Below are positions 3,460-40,519 of a stretch of DNA of 40,519 bases, piece by piece (position 1 is the first letter of the stretch; the number at the start of each line of letters is the position of its first letter). The stretch is from the IMG/VR virus record IMGVR_UViG_2872185964_000011; one strand, 5' to 3'. The notes under the pieces are model-generated. The model did not search any database, was not told the origin of the DNA, and saw only the letters and a list, made by a program, of their open reading frames with translations. Made by a program: the position numbers and the translations under genes. The DNA is from a virus (lineage: Duplodnaviria; Heunggongvirae; Uroviricota; Caudoviricetes).

Positions 3460-3488
3460 TAATATACCTATGGTAGAATATGGTCACT

Positions 3489-3508
3489 TCTCTCTCTCTA
3501 TATATATA
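3489..3508 (+). repeat. dinucleotide repeat tract (TC)5(TA)5 just upstream of the RBS of the 3525 gene
   Basis: tctctctctc tatatatata read directly; GGAGG RBS at 3515-3519, ATG at 3525. Confidence 0.8.
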
Positions 3509-3524
3509 ACTAACGGAGGCGGGT

Positions 3525-4322
3525 ATGCCCCTGGCGAAAATATTTACAAAGCAAGTTTCTTTATTAACTATGTTTTCAGCGTTAGCTTATGCGATGGCAT
3601 ATTCTTTTCAGAAAGGTGTTGCATCGTATTATGGCTATCCAGACCTTTTTATTAAAATAGACTTAAATACGCTATTGTATTCGGCTGTGTGGCTTTTGTT
3701 TTTTAGTTTTTTATTTCTCGGCGCCTTATATGCGGCGTTGATGTTTGATTTGAAAGGGAAATATTATGTTCCATTTATTGTATTTATAGTTGTTATGCTA
3801 ATGGCTAATATTTGTATAATAGGATTTCATTGGCCTTTTGGTTATTTCTCCGAAACTTCTGTGATGAGTGTTCAGGATATTTTATTATTTGCTATGCTTT
3901 TGTTGAATTATCACAATGTGGTGTCCATGCCAATCCATAGTAAGAGACACGAACATCATATGGAGAGCATTAGAAAATTTGGGAGGCTTGCAGAGTATAA
4001 GAACGTATTTTATTATATCGATTTAAAAATCCTAAAGTCAGCTTTTCCTTTAGGGGTGATAACGTTGTTGATATTGAGCTATACATTCGGGAAGGTTACT
4101 GCATTTAAAAATAACGAATATTATATGGTAGATGGTAGTAATACTAAAGTGTTGCTCAATTCATTTGGTAGTGGTTTTGTTGTTGGTGATTGTGAGTCAA
4201 ATAGCGCAAAATTTGAATTTGTTAATGATTTAAAAGGGATGAGATTCACAATCATGTCCTCTAAAAAGGAAATAGCTAAATTAAAAGAGTGTTTCGAAAT
4301 ACGTGTTAAAAATACGGATTAA
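3525..4322 (+). CDS. hypothetical multi-pass membrane protein; AT-rich accessory gene antisense to the replication operon
   Basis: 265-aa ORF with strong RBS; about four hydrophobic helices in the N-terminal half, soluble C-terminal ~90 aa; visibly AT-rich compared with flanks; no family recognised. Confidence 0.6.
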   Translation: MPLAKIFTKQVSLLTMFSALAYAMAYSFQKGVASYYGYPDLFIKIDLNTLLYSAVWLLFFSFLFLGALYAALMFDLKGKYYVPFIVFIVVMLMANICIIGFHWPFGYFSETSVMSVQDILLFAMLLLNYHNVVSMPIHSKRHEHHMESIRKFGRLAEYKNVFYYIDLKILKSAFPLGVITLLILSYTFGKVTAFKNNEYYMVDGSNTKVLLNSFGSGFVVGDCESNSAKFEFVNDLKGMRFTIMSSKKEIAKLKECFEIRVKNTD

Positions 4323-5800: not shown

Positions 5801-7864
5801 TCAATCTTTTTTGTAGTGGTACGCCTCAAAACCGCCAGCGTTCAGTGGGATATCGGGCGCCCATTCGGGGTCAGTGGAGAGAAGCGCGGAAAGCGCTTTA
5901 TCGTTGAAATCTTCTGTGTCAGGTGCTTCGGTGATCACCTCGTCGTGTACCGTCAGCACAATGCTGTAACCGGCATCTTCGATAAGCGGCATGTTTCCGG
6001 CCAGAATGTCGCGGGCGGCCGCCTGGGTGATGTTCTCCACCAGCTTTCCGCCGTAGGTTTTGAGTCGTTGCCATTTACGCGAATAAGAGTTAACCCCCAT
6101 GTAGGTGATATTCCCTTTTTCGATAACCGGAGACGGGTAGCATACAGCGCGTCCGGATGGTAGCTGTATGCGCAGCCACGCGCCATCGCGGCGGATTTTA
6201 AGATAACCGCAATACAATGTTTTTTGCGGTGTGGCGATTGCAGTGCGGACGGTGCGCTCCAGTTCGTACCAGAAATCACAGGTCGCGGGATGCGCCCGGC
6301 GCCAGAGACGTTTAAGTGAGTCGCAGGCGATAAATACCCGTTCAGAAAGCCCGTAGGTTGACTTGCGTTTAACCGATTCGTCGTACCAGCTTTTCGCCTC
6401 GCGGATAACATCGCGGGGAATGTTTGGTAGTGCGGCGTTCGCCAGCTCGTCGAGATCGAGACCGTAAACCAGTGCAAAAGTGATGAAGGCCGACACACCA
6501 CCACCATAACCCAGACCGAGTTCCATGACTTTACCGATCTGACGCATGTGTTTATCAACATCATCTGGTGCAATATCGAAAGCTTTTGCATACGCCAGTT
6601 TATATAAGTCCGGACCCGTTCCGGCGTCGTACTCTCTGAATGCATTCAGTTTCCATTCTTCTCCCGCCAGCCATGCCAGCATACGGCCTTCAATGTTCGA
6701 CAAGTCACTTACCACCAGCTTTTTGCCTGTTGGCGCGATAATGCAGCCACGTAACGCTGAACTGGTTAGTTCCATGATATTGTCAAACAGCAGGTCTGCA
6801 CATCCGGCTTTCAGTGCTTCGATGCCTTCGTCTATTTGTTCCTGTTTTAGTGAAGGGCGGGGAAGGTTCTGGGGCTGGAATAGCCGTCCGGCCCAACGAC
6901 CGGTACGTGACGCCCCGCAGAACTGTAGCGTACCGCGTAAGCGCCCGTCGTGGCTTACGCCTTTCATCAGTGCCTTGTATTTACTGGTGCTGGTAGTACT
7001 GGCCTGCAGGCGGATAGCCAGCAGTTCTTTCACGGCAGATGGTAAATCGGGGTCGGCAATACGACGTTCCAGAGTACTGCGTTGCATGTCTGGTAGCTCC
7101 ACACCGTAGGATTCAACAATGTGCTTAATCAACGCGTCTCGTTGTGTGGCTGCCTGCACTTCGCCATCAGTCATTTCCTGTGTACGCTTTGCCAGGCGCT
7201 TTTGTTCCTGGTCTACCGCGTCGATCGCAGCGCGTGCGAGTTCCACGTCCATGCAGACGCCCCGGTCATTGATCTGCTGATCACGATGCCAGAGCGCCAG
7301 TTCTGTCCCCTGATAATTCCACTTCGGCAGACGTTTATAGACTTCGCGCATTGCCTCGATATCCAGTCCGGCGTAAGCAACAAAGCGCCGCCATTCTTCC
7401 GGGTGGGTTTTGCTGGTGGCCCGGCGCAGTTTGCTGTTTTTCGGGCGTGGCTTACAGAACAGCTGGATCAGCGCTTTACCTTCTTTGTCCTTCGCTTTGT
7501 CTTGCGGGACGCCTAGTACTTCGCAGAGTTCCCCCAGAGACCCCGGGAGACCGTGCGCCAGCGCCTGCACCATTGTGTCGCGCCAACGTTCGACTGGCGG
7601 TGCCAGGCGCGGCATTGCATAACGCAGAACGGTGCGGTCGAAGTGAGAGTTATGGAAATAAAGCTGGGTTTCAGGGTCTGCGATTGCTTCGTATAAGCCG
7701 TGTGGAATACCACCACCGGCAGTGATATCCCACACGTTTACTGGCCCGTCGTTGATAGCCCATGCGAAAAGCATCACTTCAACGCCTTCGGCATACGCAT
7801 GGGTACCGTTCGTAATAGGGATTTCGCAATAGGTTTCCAGGTCGCCCCATAGTATATTGGACAT
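5801..7864 (-). CDS. family A DNA polymerase with N-terminal 3'-5' exonuclease domain
   Basis: 687 aa; exo motif [11 protein letters not shown]; polymerase motif [16 protein letters not shown], motif [17 protein letters not shown], motif C VHDEVI. Confidence 0.85.
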
Positions 7865-12804: not shown

Positions 12805-12822
12805 AATGTGTATACCCACATT
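12805..12822. promoter_or_regulatory. operator candidate: 18-bp palindrome AATGTGTATACCCACATT in the cI-cro intergenic region
   Basis: perfect dyad read directly; a TTGACA hexamer lies 20 bp to the right (12843-12848). Confidence 0.45.
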
Positions 12823-12899
12823 AAAAACAATTTTTGTTGTATTTGACAAACCTCATTTGTTGTTGCTAAATACCACTAAAATTGTATGAGGTGAAAGCA

Positions 12900-13112
12900 A
12901 TGACCTTAGCGACCCGAGTAAAAGAACGACGTAAAGAACTCAAAATGACGCAAGTTACGTTGGCTGAGCTCACAGGAGTGAGCCAGCAGGCAATAAACAG
13001 AATTGAAAGTGGTGTTATTGCTCGGCCACGTTATCTTCTTGAAATGTCTATAGCATTGGATTGCGACCCTAATTGGCTGTTGTATGGCTCACAAAACGAT
13101 AAAAAGGCTTAA
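12900..13112 (+). CDS. Cro-like HTH regulator
   Basis: 70 aa MTLATRVKERRKELKMTQVTLAELTGVSQQAINRIESG; GAGGTG RBS; divergent from repressor. Confidence 0.75.
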   Translation: MTLATRVKERRKELKMTQVTLAELTGVSQQAINRIESGVIARPRYLLEMSIALDCDPNWLLYGSQNDKKA

Positions 13113-13115
13113 CCC

Positions 13116-15307
13116 ATGTCCGATAGCAAACCATGGGGAGCTACGCCTGATGAGTGGTTTCATTTCGACCTGGTATTGGGGAGAACTGATCATCTTCTGC
13201 CAGTTGTATGTAACCCCGGTGCGACCATATCCCCTGATAGTAAACTGAAAGCGCTGGGTAAGACGCCGAGTCGCTATAACCGGGACCGCCAGGTCACCGG
13301 TATTGCTCAATGGACCGGGCATGTTGTTACTGAGCATGATTTTGCCCGCTGGTCGAATGAACCGGATTATGGCATCTGCGTGCGTACAGGCCATGGCTGG
13401 CTGGCGCTGGACTGCGATAGCGAAGATGAAGACATTCAGGCAGATATTCGCAAAACACTTGTGCAACTTCTGGGTGAGTTGCCGCCGCGACGCTGGCGAG
13501 CAAACAGTAATAAGTGTCTGTATCTGCTGGCCGTTGATGGTGATTTCCGTAAGCGTATCCATCGCTTGGCGGGGATATGGGCATTATCGAGTTGCTGGCG
13601 AACGGGCAGCAGTTCGTTGCCTGTGGTACGCACAGCAGCGGCGCGCGTATTGAATGGGACGGCGGTCTGCCGGATGAACCTCCGGCTATTACTGGTGAGC
13701 AGCTTGAAACGCTGTGGCAGCGCCTGGCTGAACAACTCCCTGTGTCGGCAACCACCGAAGCGGGCAACACGAAGATGCGCGACCGTTCAGCATTCACGCC
13801 CGGCGCGACGGATGATACAGCTGAATATCTTGATGCCAATGGCTGGACGCTGCTGGATGGTGCAAACGGTGAACGATATATCCGCTGCCCGTTTGAAGAC
13901 GGCCACAGTAGCGGGGGCGATCCGACAAGCACAGTTTATTTTCCTGCGGGGACCGCGGGTTTTGAGCAGGGGCATTTTAAATGCCTGCATGCCAGTTGTG
14001 CGCATCGTGATGACGGAGATTTCCTTAATGCCATCGGGATCCGCAACGACGATTTCGAAGATCTGACCTGCACCGAAGTGGCGGAACCTTTACCGCTGCC
14101 GGCTTTCGAGCGTGATAAATGGGGGCGTATCGAGGCAACCATCAGCAACGCAGCCAAAGCAGTAGTACGCCCTGATTTTGTGGACATCGATATTCGCTTT
14201 GACCAGTTCCGCGACGAAATCATGTTTGCCCCTGCAGGATCCGGACAATGGCGGGCATTCACCGATGCGGATTATGCGCGCCTGCGCATCACGATGGAAA
14301 AGCGGGGATTTAAACCTGTTGGTCGTGAACTTATTCGCGATGTGGTGTTACTTGCAGCCGATGAACAACCATTCGATTCAGCGATCACTTGGCTGAACGG
14401 ACTGGAGTGGGATGGCGTGCCGCGCATCGAATGTTTCTACCATACGCACTTCGGTACCGCCGACACGCCTTATACCCGTGCGGTGTCTATGTACATGTGG
14501 ACCGCGTTGGCGGGGCGAGTACTGGAGCCAGGCATCAAAGCGGATATGGTGCCTATCCTCGTTGGTCCGCAGGGCTGCGGTAAGTCTTCCGGAGTGGAGG
14601 CACTGAGCCCTGATCCTGCGTTTTTTACTGAAATCTCTTTTGCCGAAAAAGACGATGATCTCGCTCGAAAAATGCGTGGTCGGCTGGTGGCAGAGATTGG
14701 TGAACTGCGCGGACTTAATACCAAAGAGCTGGAGTCAATCAAAGCGTTTGTGACGCGTACTCACGAAAACTGGATCCCGAAATACCGGGAGTTTGCCACC
14801 CAGTTTCCTCGTCGCCTGGTGTTCGTTGGTACCACCAATGAGGACGAATTCCTTGCGGACAAGACTGGTAACCGTCGCTGGCTCCCCGTGGAAGTGTCGA
14901 AAGTCGACGTGAAAGCGATAAAAAGAGATCTCCTTTTACTTTGGGCTGAGGCTCGTGAGGTGTTTCAGCGTCTGGGGGGTATCCAGTTCCGTGAGGCTGA
15001 ACAACTGGCAGCGAGTGTCCATGAACGGTACACCATCAAGGATGCTTGGCTTGAAACGGTAGAGAAATGGCTCGACACGCCCGACCTGATGACTAATGAA
15101 CTTCCGCGAAATTGCGAATTTTTACGCGCAAGTGATGTTTTGCGTGATGCGATTGGGCTAAATCCTGACCGCATCGGAAAACGCGAAGAAATGCGAATTA
15201 GTAATGTTTTGCAAAATTGCGGGTATAAGCGCGTTCAACGTCGTGTTGACGGAAAAATGACTCGAATTTTTGAGGCGGTGTCCCAACCTGTACCAGCTTC
15301 AAAATAG
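13116..15307 (+). CDS. replication initiation protein: primase-polymerase-like N-terminus plus VirE-like P-loop NTPase C-terminus; frame broken at G-run 13571-13574
   Basis: N-part with acidic LALDCDSEDED; C-part GPQGCGKSS Walker A and VFVGTTNEDEF Walker B-like; adding one G at 13571-13574 joins ...RKRIHRLAG to DMGIIELLANG... Confidence 0.75.
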
Positions 15308-15465
15308 AGGTTGGTACATTTTAACTAATTGAATTTAAAGGTCAGTACCAACTGTACCAACTGTACCAACCTAATTACTAAGAACCCCATATATATATAT
15401 ATAAGTCGCTTGGGGAAAAGGTTTGAAAAGAGCTGGTACAGGTGGGTACAGGCTGGTACAGGCCG
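15285..15465. repeat. array of eight GTAC-core repeats in two inverted tandem triplets flanking a (TA)7 tract; candidate replication origin iterons or regulator binding sites
   Basis: CTGTACCAAC-type units with GTAC cores at 15345/15354/15363, (TA)7 at 15390-15403, reverse-complement units CTGGTACAGG at 15436/15446/15456 spaced exactly 10 bp; extra copies at 15290 and 15314. Confidence 0.7.
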
Positions 15466-38563: not shown

Positions 38564-39109
38564 TTATGTGTGAGATGAGTTATAAATAATTTCAGAGTGA
38601 AATTTAGTAATGAATGTGGAGTCATCAGGAATGTCATGCAGTACCAATGCATGAGCTCCTATTTTTACATTATTCCCTATATGCACTTTGCCACCAAGGA
38701 TGGTGGCGTTACAGCCAATGGTTACATTATTTCCTATGACAATATCCATATCATTAAATTCACCGCGAAGTCCAATAGTTACCCCTGGCTTAATTGAACA
38801 ATTTTCACCTATTGTAACTTTGTGACCGATAACAACGCCATTGAGATAAGATATGTCGAACCCTTTACCAATATTTACAGTTAAGGGAACGGTTACATTG
38901 TATTTATCAAGAATGAAGCGTTCTATTTTTCCTGCAATCTTTCGCCGGTATCCTCCTTTATCAAAAAGATATTTTGCTACGCGCCACCAAAATAAATAAC
39001 GTAATCTTCTGTGTTTTATTGCGCGAACAATTGCTTTTCGCCAGGAGAAAGGGCGTTTATAACCTATTACTTCATAGTGTATACAGTTTTTAAGTTCACT
39101 AATATTCAT
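38564..39109 (-). CDS. hexapeptide-repeat acetyltransferase (serine-acetyltransferase-like left-handed beta-helix fold); cargo gene
   Basis: 181 aa with tandem hexapeptide repeats (VIGHKVTIGENCSIKPGVTIG...IGNNVTIGCNATILGGKVHIGNNVKIGAHALVL); AT-rich; antisense to tail genes. Confidence 0.7.
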   Translation of the reverse strand: MNISELKNCIHYEVIGYKRPFSWRKAIVRAIKHRRLRYLFWWRVAKYLFDKGGYRRKIAGKIERFILDKYNVTVPLTVNIGKGFDISYLNGVVIGHKVTIGENCSIKPGVTIGLRGEFNDMDIVIGNNVTIGCNATILGGKVHIGNNVKIGAHALVLHDIPDDSTFITKFHSEIIYNSSHT

Positions 39110-39190: not shown

Positions 39191-39322
39191 ACTCTCACGC
39201 CGGAGCAATGGGCGCAGGCTGGACGACAAATTGCATCAGGAGTTTCTCGCCAGAAAATGGCGATCATCTATGATGTTGGCGTATCGACTTTGTATAAGAA
39301 GTTTCCGGTCGGAGATGAATGA
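39191..39322 (+). pseudogene. 3'-terminal remnant of a Gin/Pin/Hin-family DNA invertase gene (HTH domain only)
   Basis: own translation TLTPEQWAQAGRQIASGVSRQKMAIIYDVGVSTLYKKFPVGDE resembles the Gin/Hin C-terminus; upstream is AT-rich with no catalytic domain. Confidence 0.6.
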
Positions 39323-39403: not shown

Positions 39404-40051
39404 CTATGAAGCTAATTTGTTTAATTTCATTTGTAGCGACTTTACTTCTTGGTCGATAATGTTGAATCCCTTATTGACTGCATCTCTTAGTTCTGCATCA
39501 ATATTTTTTATCCCTTGAGCATAATCTACCATTACATCTATTTTTTCATCATGTAATCTCTTATACATGGTTTTATCTTTGTTATTGTCAGCCATACCAA
39601 TAAGTATTTTTTCATAATCCTCAATGAGTTTGTTGTTTCCTTTAAATGATTGTATTAATGACCGTGAATATGTGTAGATATTAATTATTGAGTCTCTGGC
39701 AGAATCATTTAGTTTTGCAATGACATTCGCATTTTGCTCATAGAATGTGAAATTATCATCCCCTACAGGGAAAGTGAGAATTAATATCTGTCCGGGTTTG
39801 ATATTATCAATGTGTGTTTTCATCCTTTTATTATATAAATTGATTAGGGTGAAAACTTCTCCCTTAACACCTTTTAATACTGAAAGTTGCAATTCAAGGG
39901 ATTCTCTTTCTGTCTCTACTTTAGACAGCTTAGCTTGTTGGGTAACTCCTTTTAGGGTAAACCATCCGCCAATAAGAGTACCAACTAGAGCTGTGAGGGA
40001 GGAGGATAACCATCCAGGAATGCTATTTAAAAAATTACTAAATTCACTCAT
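39404..40051 (-). CDS. hypothetical membrane-anchored protein; cargo gene at the right end
   Basis: 215 aa; N-terminal hydrophobic helix (LSSSLTALVGTLIGGWFTL), then helical and globular segments; AT-rich; no family recognised. Confidence 0.55.
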   Translation of the reverse strand: MSEFSNFLNSIPGWLSSSLTALVGTLIGGWFTLKGVTQQAKLSKVETERESLELQLSVLKGVKGEVFTLINLYNKRMKTHIDNIKPGQILILTFPVGDDNFTFYEQNANVIAKLNDSARDSIINIYTYSRSLIQSFKGNNKLIEDYEKILIGMADNNKDKTMYKRLHDEKIDVMVDYAQGIKNIDAELRDAVNKGFNIIDQEVKSLQMKLNKLAS

Positions 40052-40076
40052 TATAAGTACTCGCTAATATTGAACG

Positions 40077-40086
40077 ATATATATAT
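40077..40086. repeat. (AT)5 dinucleotide repeat 26-35 nt upstream of the 39404-40051 gene start
   Basis: atatatatat read directly. Confidence 0.7.
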
Positions 40087-40188
40087 CAAATTATTATAAA
40101 ACTCGTCAGCTACTGGAGAAGGCTACCTGAACTTCGATCTATTCCTGCATCCATATAGTTGATGGTCTTCTGGAGCTCTTCGATTAGG

Positions 40189-40519
40189 GGTGATGCTGCC
40201 AACTTACTGATTTAGTGTATGATGGTGTTTTTGAGGTGCTCCAGTGGCTTCTGTTTCTATCAGCTGTCCCTCCTGTTCAGCTACTGACGGGGTGGTGCGT
40301 AACGGCAAAAGCACTGCCGGACATCAGCGCTATCTCTGCTCTCACTGCCGTAAAACATGGCAACTGCAGTTCACTTACACCGCTTCTCAACCCGGTACGC
40401 ACCAGAAAATTATTGATATGGCCATGAATGGCGTTGGATGCCGGGCAACTGCACGCATTATGGGCGTTGGCCTCAACACGGTTTTACGTCACTTAAAAAA
40501 CTCAGGCCGCAGTCGGTAA
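40189..40519 (+). mobile_element. IS1 insertion sequence, left end and insA (partial; continues beyond window)
   Basis: starts GGTGATGCTGCCAACTTACTGATTTAGTGTATGATGGTG, the IS1 terminal inverted repeat as I recall it. Confidence 0.9.
40244..40519 (+). CDS. insA: IS1 InsA protein
   Basis: 91-aa product [43 protein letters not shown]... matches InsA. Confidence 0.9.

Follow-up and report, generated by a model that had tools for sequence, protein, structure and literature searches.

A 215-codon gene at the right end of a prophage

The DNA analysed here is a stretch of 40,519 nucleotides (nt; hereafter the window) from a virus of the class Caudoviricetes, IMG/VR record IMGVR_UViG_2872185964_000011. 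Near its right end lies a gene whose product of 215 amino acids (aa) is identical to RefSeq entry WP_134804676.1, a 'hypothetical protein'. On one side of this gene are the remnant of a DNA invertase gene and an acetyltransferase gene, and on the other are a short upstream region with an (AT)5 repeat, the remnant of an 88-aa phage gene, and the left end of an insertion sequence (Table 1). The GC content of the 215-aa gene is 32.9% compared with 49.4% for the window, and an earlier note on this DNA was correct in describing an AT-rich gene at the prophage right end.

Identical or near-identical copies of the gene are present in 80-83 of 5426 complete E. coli genomes, on the chromosome in every case. 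None of 13 distinct E. coli alleles has an internal stop codon, and their mean ratio of nonsynonymous to synonymous polymorphism (pN/pS) is 0.10, with synonymous change only at 26 codons versus 17 codons with an amino-acid change. The 215-aa gene is therefore real and under purifying selection.

A homologue search returned 216 sequences. Orthologues of 215-223 aa with 60-74% identity occur across Enterobacterales, in Dickeya, Enterobacter, Salmonella, Yersinia, Providencia, Serratia, Morganella, Klebsiella, Proteus, Pantoea, Erwinia and other genera; all are annotated as 'hypothetical' and none has a precomputed Pfam domain. An alignment of 32 sequences contains 66 invariant positions. A close relative was found in only seven GTDB species-representative genomes, which confirms a sporadic, accessory distribution.

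A paralogue of 200 aa with 31% identity is carried by replicons of 107-122 kb that also carry phage genes (positions 5977-6579 of locus L059 and 5968-6570 of locus L060). The hosts of these replicons are Enterobacter, Citrobacter, Salmonella and E. coli, and 27 of the 29 replicons were typed as non-mobilizable. Phage genes are present in both replicons that were inspected, and examples from the Salmonella replicon are Rha, a Dam-like methylase, dihydrofolate reductase and thymidylate synthase. The replicons bearing the paralogue are probably phage-plasmids.

A large family without a name

A profile search of 1.84 billion cluster representatives identified 667 clusters (at 50% identity) with E ≤ 1e-3, including 254 with E ≤ 1e-10. 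Nearly all of the 667 contain proteins of 190-230 aa that match from end to end. Scans of Pfam, NCBIfam, PHROGs and PADLOC with the window protein gave sub-threshold noise only. In Pfam, DUF7201 scored 14 bits (cut-off 27) and ORF45 scored 13 bits, with nothing reaching a gathering score, and the best match in PADLOC-DB v2.0.0 (CARF6, 14.7 bits, E = 0.0032) was not significant. The same pattern was obtained with 54 diverse relatives that are 19-55% identical to the window protein: no PADLOC family was matched by more than two of them, and their Pfam matches were distributed over 15 different families with one member each, none of them consistent. No match at gathering score was obtained to SieB, RexB and T4 Imm, Pfam families of known exclusion proteins, or to LemA and 4HB_MCP. 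A profile search of PDB sequences gave chance matches only, and nothing on the protein was found in the literature by RefSeq accession or keywords.

The large number of clusters combined with the lack of a consistent library match indicates that the protein belongs to a large, unnamed family.

Predicted fold and membrane topology

The fold was modelled with AlphaFold2 (AF2) from a 32-sequence alignment, giving a predicted local distance difference test score (pLDDT) of 84 and a predicted template modelling score (pTM) of 0.71. In this model, a helix spanning residues 13-82 comprises the hydrophobic segment and a long stalk, and further helices are formed by residues 116-154 and 160-214. The irregular stretch from 83 to 115 holds the most conserved motif, FPVGDDNFTFYEQNA, for which the family consensus is QDYFTVY and in which F101 is invariant even among relatives with 20-30% identity. 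Residues conserved at 19-55% identity are G24, E65, Y73, F101, Y126, N139, N140 and Y177, and the glycines G24, G28 and G29 are invariant in the Enterobacterales alignment. The predicted fold is of the four-helix-bundle type, and fold searches yielded generic four-helix bundles only. The earlier note had envisaged helical and globular segments beyond an N-terminal anchor, whereas the model depicts one all-helical bundle.

The anchor itself is better supported by the family than by the allele in the window. Most members score 1.6-2.5 on the Kyte-Doolittle scale in the equivalent segment, and the G-x3-G-G pattern is kept; because of these values a single transmembrane (TM) helix is also predicted for the window protein. 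Among the 54 diverse members, the 15 residues preceding this helix contain on average 0.6 lysines or arginines versus 2.9 in the 15 residues that follow. In addition, four longer members begin with a signal peptide, which is followed by about 70 aa and then by the family TM segment. The charge bias and the signal-peptide-bearing relatives argue for an N-out/C-in orientation that places the bundle on the cytoplasmic side, and the protein is accordingly predicted to be a single-pass protein of the inner membrane.

Family genes in variable slots of mobile elements

Within this prophage family, the content of the slot that separates the 88-aa gene from the invertase gene varies. Phage vB_EcoM-611R5 and E. 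coli O111:H11 8D have a different cargo gene there, which encodes a 281-aa protein, WP_001039129.1 (locus L026, 3133-3978; locus L028, 2365-3210), that matches nothing in Pfam or PADLOC and is not similar to the 215-aa family. Homology of the family with a second cargo gene of the P2 S-V slot was likewise considered, and none was found on comparison.

About 15 distinct contexts of family genes were compared qualitatively. In Enterobacterales loci the 215-aa gene was always solitary with changing neighbors, which is to say that it moves alone. In a Providencia lambdoid prophage it directly follows, on the same strand, genes for a cI-type repressor (helix-turn-helix [HTH] plus Peptidase_S24) and an HSDR_N protein, and is itself followed by a GC-rich hairpin and a T-run. 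In Citrobacter, the gene marks the end of another prophage of the myovirus type, which has Mu-type baseplate genes, and is adjacent to a fragment of icd. Other copies are found near a P4-type primase in Budvicia, as cargo of an integrative and conjugative element (ICE) beside ccdAB in Dickeya, and in a small islet beside higBA in Enterobacter. Elements of the Pantoea type carry the gene in an accessory region shared with a prophage integrase and a SieB-family gene.

Three P2-like prophages from IMG/VR were also found to carry a family gene. In two of these it is located between gpS and gpV. In the third it is located between gpA and the portal gene, beside a gene for a KAP-family NTPase. One 65-aa open reading frame (ORF) separates the family gene from this 713-aa P-loop NTPase (locus L052, 5974-9299), which resembles the single-gene Reve system. 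The gpA-gpQ interval is described as an anti-phage hotspot of P2 by Rousset et al. 2022 (PMC9122126), and Reve is described as a validated single-gene KAP defence system in a second report (PMC13586616).

Three distant homologues are on usable contigs. One, with 20-28% identity, is encoded two genes away from a full-length ThsB-like TIR protein (locus L020, 5707-7723), and another directly follows genes for an AAA_15/SMC_N ATPase and a GmrSD_N/HNH protein (locus L064, 705-5676). Some subfamilies might work with partners.

Over the contexts compared, family genes recurrently reside in variable slots or near known defence genes, as is expected for the cargo of defence hotspots. The earlier note had called the location in the window a typical slot for defence or conversion cargo. 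The part of this description that concerns defence is supported by the variable slot and by the presence of relatives in anti-phage hotspots and defence neighborhoods, whereas a conversion role shared with the adjacent acetyltransferase is not, because the pairing of these genes is not conserved. The 215-aa gene is also useful for marking the variable cargo slots of prophages.

A candidate anti-phage protein

A conserved, solitary, AT-rich gene that hops between elements and recurs in anti-phage slots presents the pattern that is used to nominate defence genes. Moreover, PMC13586616 reports that six of eight randomly chosen P4 hotspot loci of unknown function gave protection against phages, which sets a high prior for genes of unknown function in slots of this kind. 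We therefore favor an anti-phage role for the 215-aa protein, either superinfection exclusion or abortive infection, and judge from genomic context that the probability of such a role is roughly 45%. These two modes are inseparable on present evidence.

The scheme that we infer, from topology and expression in the lysogen through to anti-phage function and each mechanistic step, would operate as follows. A short periplasmic N-terminus of about 12 aa would precede one glycine-rich TM helix, which would continue into a cytoplasmic, antiparallel bundle of roughly 175 residues containing the conserved irregular segment. The gene itself is a self-contained accessory ('moron') gene that moves alone among temperate phages, satellites, ICEs and replicons resembling phage-plasmids, and the resident element is probably the source of its expression. 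Held against the cytoplasmic side of the membrane, the bundle could recognize a phage component there, such as an early phage protein, a tape-measure protein or an ejection protein. Recognition might then block genome entry, resulting in superinfection exclusion, or might cause the GxxxG-bearing TM helices to self-associate and breach the membrane, resulting in abortive infection.

In its most far-reaching form, which we consider doubtful, this proposal would make the window protein the first recognized member of a large family of stand-alone, single-polypeptide anti-phage proteins. Each would consist of a cytoplasmic helical-bundle sensor fused directly to a self-associating, glycine-rich TM helix, and would combine sensing with membrane action (entry block or depolarization) in about 200 residues without an enzymatic domain, with expression in E. 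coli tuned by a slippage-prone (AT)n tract. Such a family would comprise hundreds of 50%-identity clusters and extend well beyond Enterobacterales.

Several observations weigh against an anti-phage role. No homology links the protein to a validated defence or exclusion protein in PADLOC, Pfam, PHROG or NCBIfam, and Foldseek searches of PDB and BFVD gave no match with E ≤ 1e-3. As modelled, the protein is a helical bundle without obvious effector chemistry, in a fold that has no catalytic signature. The hydrophobic segment of this particular allele is marginal, its best 19-mer scoring 1.35. A tblastn search of 50,697 deposited phage genomes with the 215-aa protein and a distant relative returned no match. 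The window copy may be poorly expressed, since IS1 has removed any read-through from the 88-aa gene and expression must therefore depend on the short stretch left upstream or on IS1 itself. Guilt by location is weak for single loci, the comparison of the roughly 15 contexts is qualitative, and the context of the third distant homologue (P0279) is uninformative.

If the protein does act against phages, it would be a compact, widely spread and unannotated single-gene addition to the anti-phage repertoire, and one that is invisible to Pfam and PADLOC v2.0.0. Its gene occurs in P2-like and lambdoid prophages, in those of other myoviruses, in P4-like satellites and ICEs, and on phage-plasmid-like replicons. 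The simple architecture of the protein, one TM helix and a helical bundle, would then offer a tractable model for a membrane-tethered sensor that stops infection. Without such activity, the protein would be one more conserved 'hypothetical' moron product and the finding would be ordinary.

Comparison with known systems

Small inner-membrane-anchored proteins encoded by temperate elements include lambda RexB (with RexA), P22 SieA and SieB, HK97 gp15 and lactococcal proteins of the Sie2009 type, and the 215-aa protein, as predicted, resembles them in these respects. Genes for exclusion proteins also occupy similar accessory slots near a repressor, an att site or tail genes. For example, rexAB of lambda is located directly downstream of cI, as is one relative of the 215-aa gene, and another relative lies in one accessory region together with a SieB-family gene and an integrase gene. 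However, the 215-aa protein is not similar to the SieB, RexB or T4 Imm models or to any other model in Pfam or PADLOC, and it differs from the exclusion proteins in its predicted architecture, in which a single TM helix is joined to a large helical bundle in the cytoplasm. The functional class, that of an accessory gene of a prophage or other mobile genetic element encoding a candidate exclusion protein, is familiar, while the protein family itself is in no library that was queried.

Four-helix-bundle domains of chemoreceptors (Tsr and Tar, 4HB_MCP) and DUF3829 lipoproteins were compared as well. Identity to these is 10-12%, there is no Pfam match, and the Foldseek matches are not significant. 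Unlike chemoreceptors, the 215-aa protein has a single predicted TM helix and ends at residue 215 with no HAMP or signalling domain, and its bundle is predicted to be cytoplasmic rather than periplasmic. As modelled, it also differs from 4HB domains in that one of the four bundle elements is the irregular conserved segment instead of a helix.

Relatives located beside a KAP NTPase or a P4-type primase lie exactly in the defence hotspots of P2 (gpA-gpQ) and P4 described in passages of PMC9122126 and PMC13586616. However, none of the systems named in these main-text passages has the architecture of the 215-aa protein, and the family does not appear in the passages of either main text found by keyword. 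Furthermore, the window copy resides in a different, non-P2 myovirus prophage. Membrane anchors joined to cytoplasmic, sensor-like domains are likewise found in TM-Macro ThsA of type II Thoeris, in the TM effectors of CBASS and Pycsar, and in the TIR and TM proteins of the P2-like phage AC1, and the location of a distant homologue two genes from a ThsB-like TIR protein adds to the likeness with Thoeris. In contrast to these signalling systems, the Enterobacterales subfamily is solitary with no cyclase or TIR partner, and has no recognizable nucleotide-binding domain.

Alternative functions

The main rival explanation is that the gene is a moron unrelated to defence, encoding a membrane-tethered modulator of host physiology that benefits the lysogen or the element without acting directly on incoming phages. 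It might, for example, influence stress of the envelope or membrane, act on a membrane complex of the host, or help to maintain the element. Mobility and slot usage are what any beneficial accessory gene would exhibit, helical bundles are typically interaction or sensor modules rather than effectors, and ccdAB and higBA are neighbors in generic accessory islets as well as in defence islands. What makes this explanation somewhat unlikely in our judgement is the recurrence of the family in anti-phage slots (P2 gpA-portal with KAP, ThsB-like TIR, GmrSD with AAA_15, and SieB), along with the statement in PMC13586616 that P2 and P4 elements are without other kinds of accessory genes.

The remaining explanations are poorly supported because the partners they call for are not conserved. 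A part in the phage's own cycle, either as an anti-defence factor or as a regulator that is anchored in the membrane and controls when lysis occurs or how DNA is ejected or enters, would fit a gene that is mainly prophage-borne, is sometimes within tail-gene regions (the S-V slot), and encodes a membrane anchor like those of holin and antiholin regulators. We consider this to have only a slim chance of being correct, since the gene is never beside a lysis cassette in the loci examined, also occurs in an ICE and in chromosomal islets that contain no phage genes, and is often transcribed opposite to or apart from structural operons. The deposited phage genomes that lack it include close relatives of this prophage that carry the 88-aa gene. 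Lysogenic conversion, in which the protein would cooperate with the neighboring acetyltransferase to modify surface polysaccharide (O-antigen or capsule), is suggested by the adjacency of a hexapeptide acetyltransferase in the window and of an Acyl_transf_3 acyltransferase in E. coli IAI1, and by the AT-rich nature of both cargo genes. However, the invertase remnant separates the two genes, the type of acetyltransferase varies by strain, most family loci have no acetyltransferase, and the predicted globular part is cytoplasmic with no enzyme-like fold. A functional link to the acetyltransferase was therefore rejected, and we regard conversion as very improbable. It is equally hard to credit a two-gene module, either toxin-antitoxin-like or sensor-effector, formed with the upstream 88-aa gene and inactivated here by IS1. 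In every IS1-free E. coli copy examined, both lie on one strand with only 58-62 nt between them. Yet 40-odd E. coli genomes, as well as sequenced phages, carry the 88-aa gene but lack the 215-aa gene, while the 215-aa gene is without the 88-aa gene in every other genus examined and follows an unrelated ORF in Dickeya. Because both genes occur independently, an obligate partnership was also rejected.

A length-variable AT tract upstream of the gene

The uninterrupted (AT)5 tract upstream of the start codon is exactly where the earlier note had placed it. Its sequence, ATATATATAT, is found in two tracts of the window compared with 0.04 matches expected from dinucleotide-preserving shuffles. The second tract, (AT)7.5 at 15389-15403, is just downstream of a 576-aa ORF (13577-15307) and is flanked by three copies of GTACCAACT (15345-15370) and three GGTACAGGC-like copies (15435-15463), such that the region 15345-15463 looks like an iteron or origin-type region. 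A further tract, to which the earlier note had likened that of the 215-aa gene, consists of (CT)6 followed by (AT)4 at 3488-3510, about 19-37 nt upstream of the ATG at 3525.

The variation in repeat length that had been proposed as a check does exist among E. coli strains. Seven aligned sequences carry (AT)5, (AT)6 or (AT)7 between otherwise identical flanks, and match lengths in 58 full-coverage rows correspond to about 34 copies with (AT)5, 21 with (AT)6 and 3 with (AT)7. In all alleles that were read, namely the seven aligned sequences and two read directly, the additional nucleotides belonged to the tract. Both five and six units are present on each of two single-nucleotide polymorphism (SNP) backgrounds, and the length has therefore changed more than once. 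The tract is specific to E. coli and is absent upstream of the orthologues from other genera. In E. coli A34 (locus L029, 1560-1600), (AT)7 is accompanied by an 18-nt tandem duplication (two copies of TACTTATAATGAGTGAAT) over the start codon of the 215-aa gene.

A perfect TATAAT hexamer, a candidate -10 element, immediately follows the stop codon of the 88-aa gene, and it aligns with TATAGT or TATAAT-like hexamers in three of four sequences from other genera (Dickeya, Enterobacter and Citrobacter, but not Providencia). Its location upstream of the tract and the aligned hexamers in genera that lack the tract would place the tract at or just after the start of transcription, probably in the 5′ untranslated region (UTR). 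The best invariant hexamer pair is TTCTCC-N16-TATAAT (9/12). A strong consensus sigma-70 promoter was rejected, as none in the 58-nt gap passed a scan that requires at least 4/6 matches in each hexamer. Weaker pairs do span the tract, namely TTTATA-N15/17/19-TATCGT and TTGATA-N12/14/16-AATATT, whose spacers change with tract length. The earlier placement of the tract in the likely promoter region is plausible. The idea that the tract gives rise to an RNA structure within the 5′ UTR was rejected, given that z-scores were positive for all three alleles and the fold was no better than those of shuffled sequences.

Like a contingency locus, the tract is in a 5′ region and differs in length between strains, and it may tune expression of the gene. 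A phase-variation switch, in which changes in promoter spacing would alternately activate and silence the gene, would agree with the recurrence of slippage or recombination on two SNP backgrounds and with the two weak spanning pairs, which reach good spacing only at some tract lengths. We nevertheless consider such a switch improbable. Five to seven units are short for high-frequency slippage and for a classical phase-variation switch, and the best -10 element lies upstream of the tract and is aligned with hexamers in genera that have no tract. Neither the RNA folding results nor the consensus promoter scan provides support for a switch.

Neighboring genes and the end of the prophage

The order of features proposed earlier, in which the 215-aa gene follows the invertase remnant and precedes IS1, is correct. 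However, the gene does not contact IS1 directly, because an 80-nt remnant intervenes that the earlier note had overlooked (Table 1). The element at the window's right edge, which we take to be IS1 from its sequence, is inserted into the 88-aa gene (phrog_17793, WP_001253101.1; intact at 12811-13077 of locus L001) and separates the 215-aa gene from everything upstream. In IS1-free relatives such as E. coli DETEC-P1056, which is 100% identical over 890 nt, the 88-aa gene is encoded upstream on the same strand, and its end is separated from the 215-aa gene by 58 nt. The 88-aa gene is present in 125 genomes, and the 215-aa gene in about 80.

Table 1. Features of the 215-aa gene and its surroundings in the window.
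Feature	Position	Strand	Basis
Coding sequence, 215 aa, uncharacterised protein, predicted membrane-anchored helical bundle	39404..40051	-	ATG-start ORF, homologues, pN/pS
Predicted single TM helix, codons 14-33, WLSSSLTALVGTLIGGWFTL, with GxxxGG motif	39953..40012	-	Hydropathy, family comparison, invariant columns
Predicted long antiparallel helical bundle, predicted cytoplasmic, codons 41-214	39410..39931	-	AF2 model
Most conserved segment, FPVGDDNFTFYEQNA, codons 94-108, predicted irregular element packed on helices	39728..39772	-	Alignment, AF2
(AT)5 microsatellite, ATATATATAT, uninterrupted, 26-35 nt upstream of ATG	40077..40086	.	Sequence
TATAAT, perfect, candidate -10, immediately after stop codon of 88-aa gene	40093..40098	-	Sequence
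3′ remnant (80 nt; 26 codons and stop) of 88-aa phage gene	40110..40189	-	Comparison with IS1-free relatives
IS1 left end (inverted repeat and insA), running off the window; boundary ambiguous by 1 nt (40189/40190)	40190..40519	+	Sequence
C-terminal HTH remnant of Pin/Gin-type DNA invertase (pseudogene)	about 39194..39322	+	RefSeq annotation of 100%-identical relative; translation
Hexapeptide-repeat acetyltransferase, 181 aa, 35.7% GC, neighboring cargo	38564..39109	-	Library matches

Beyond the 88-aa gene, the prophage ends inside the host gene yfhL (ferredoxin-like), next to yfhH. The right end interrupts the yfhL reading frame at about 13280-13335 of locus L001 and a stop codon follows, from which we conclude that the element integrates inside yfhL. 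In E. coli A34, the 88-aa and 215-aa genes are kept, and the interior side, where the window has the invertase remnant and the acetyltransferase gene, is annotated with ferritin-like and general-stress genes instead of prophage genes.

The acetyltransferase gene of the window follows a tail-fibre assembly gene, is AT-rich, and encodes an EpsC/CysE-like protein (phrog_2154). It is not linked to the 215-aa gene in other loci. At the equivalent place, E. coli IAI1 carries an Acyl_transf_3 acyltransferase gene (locus L027, 1164-2231) instead of one for a hexapeptide acetyltransferase, and because the two enzymes are of different families, this place is a second variable cargo position.

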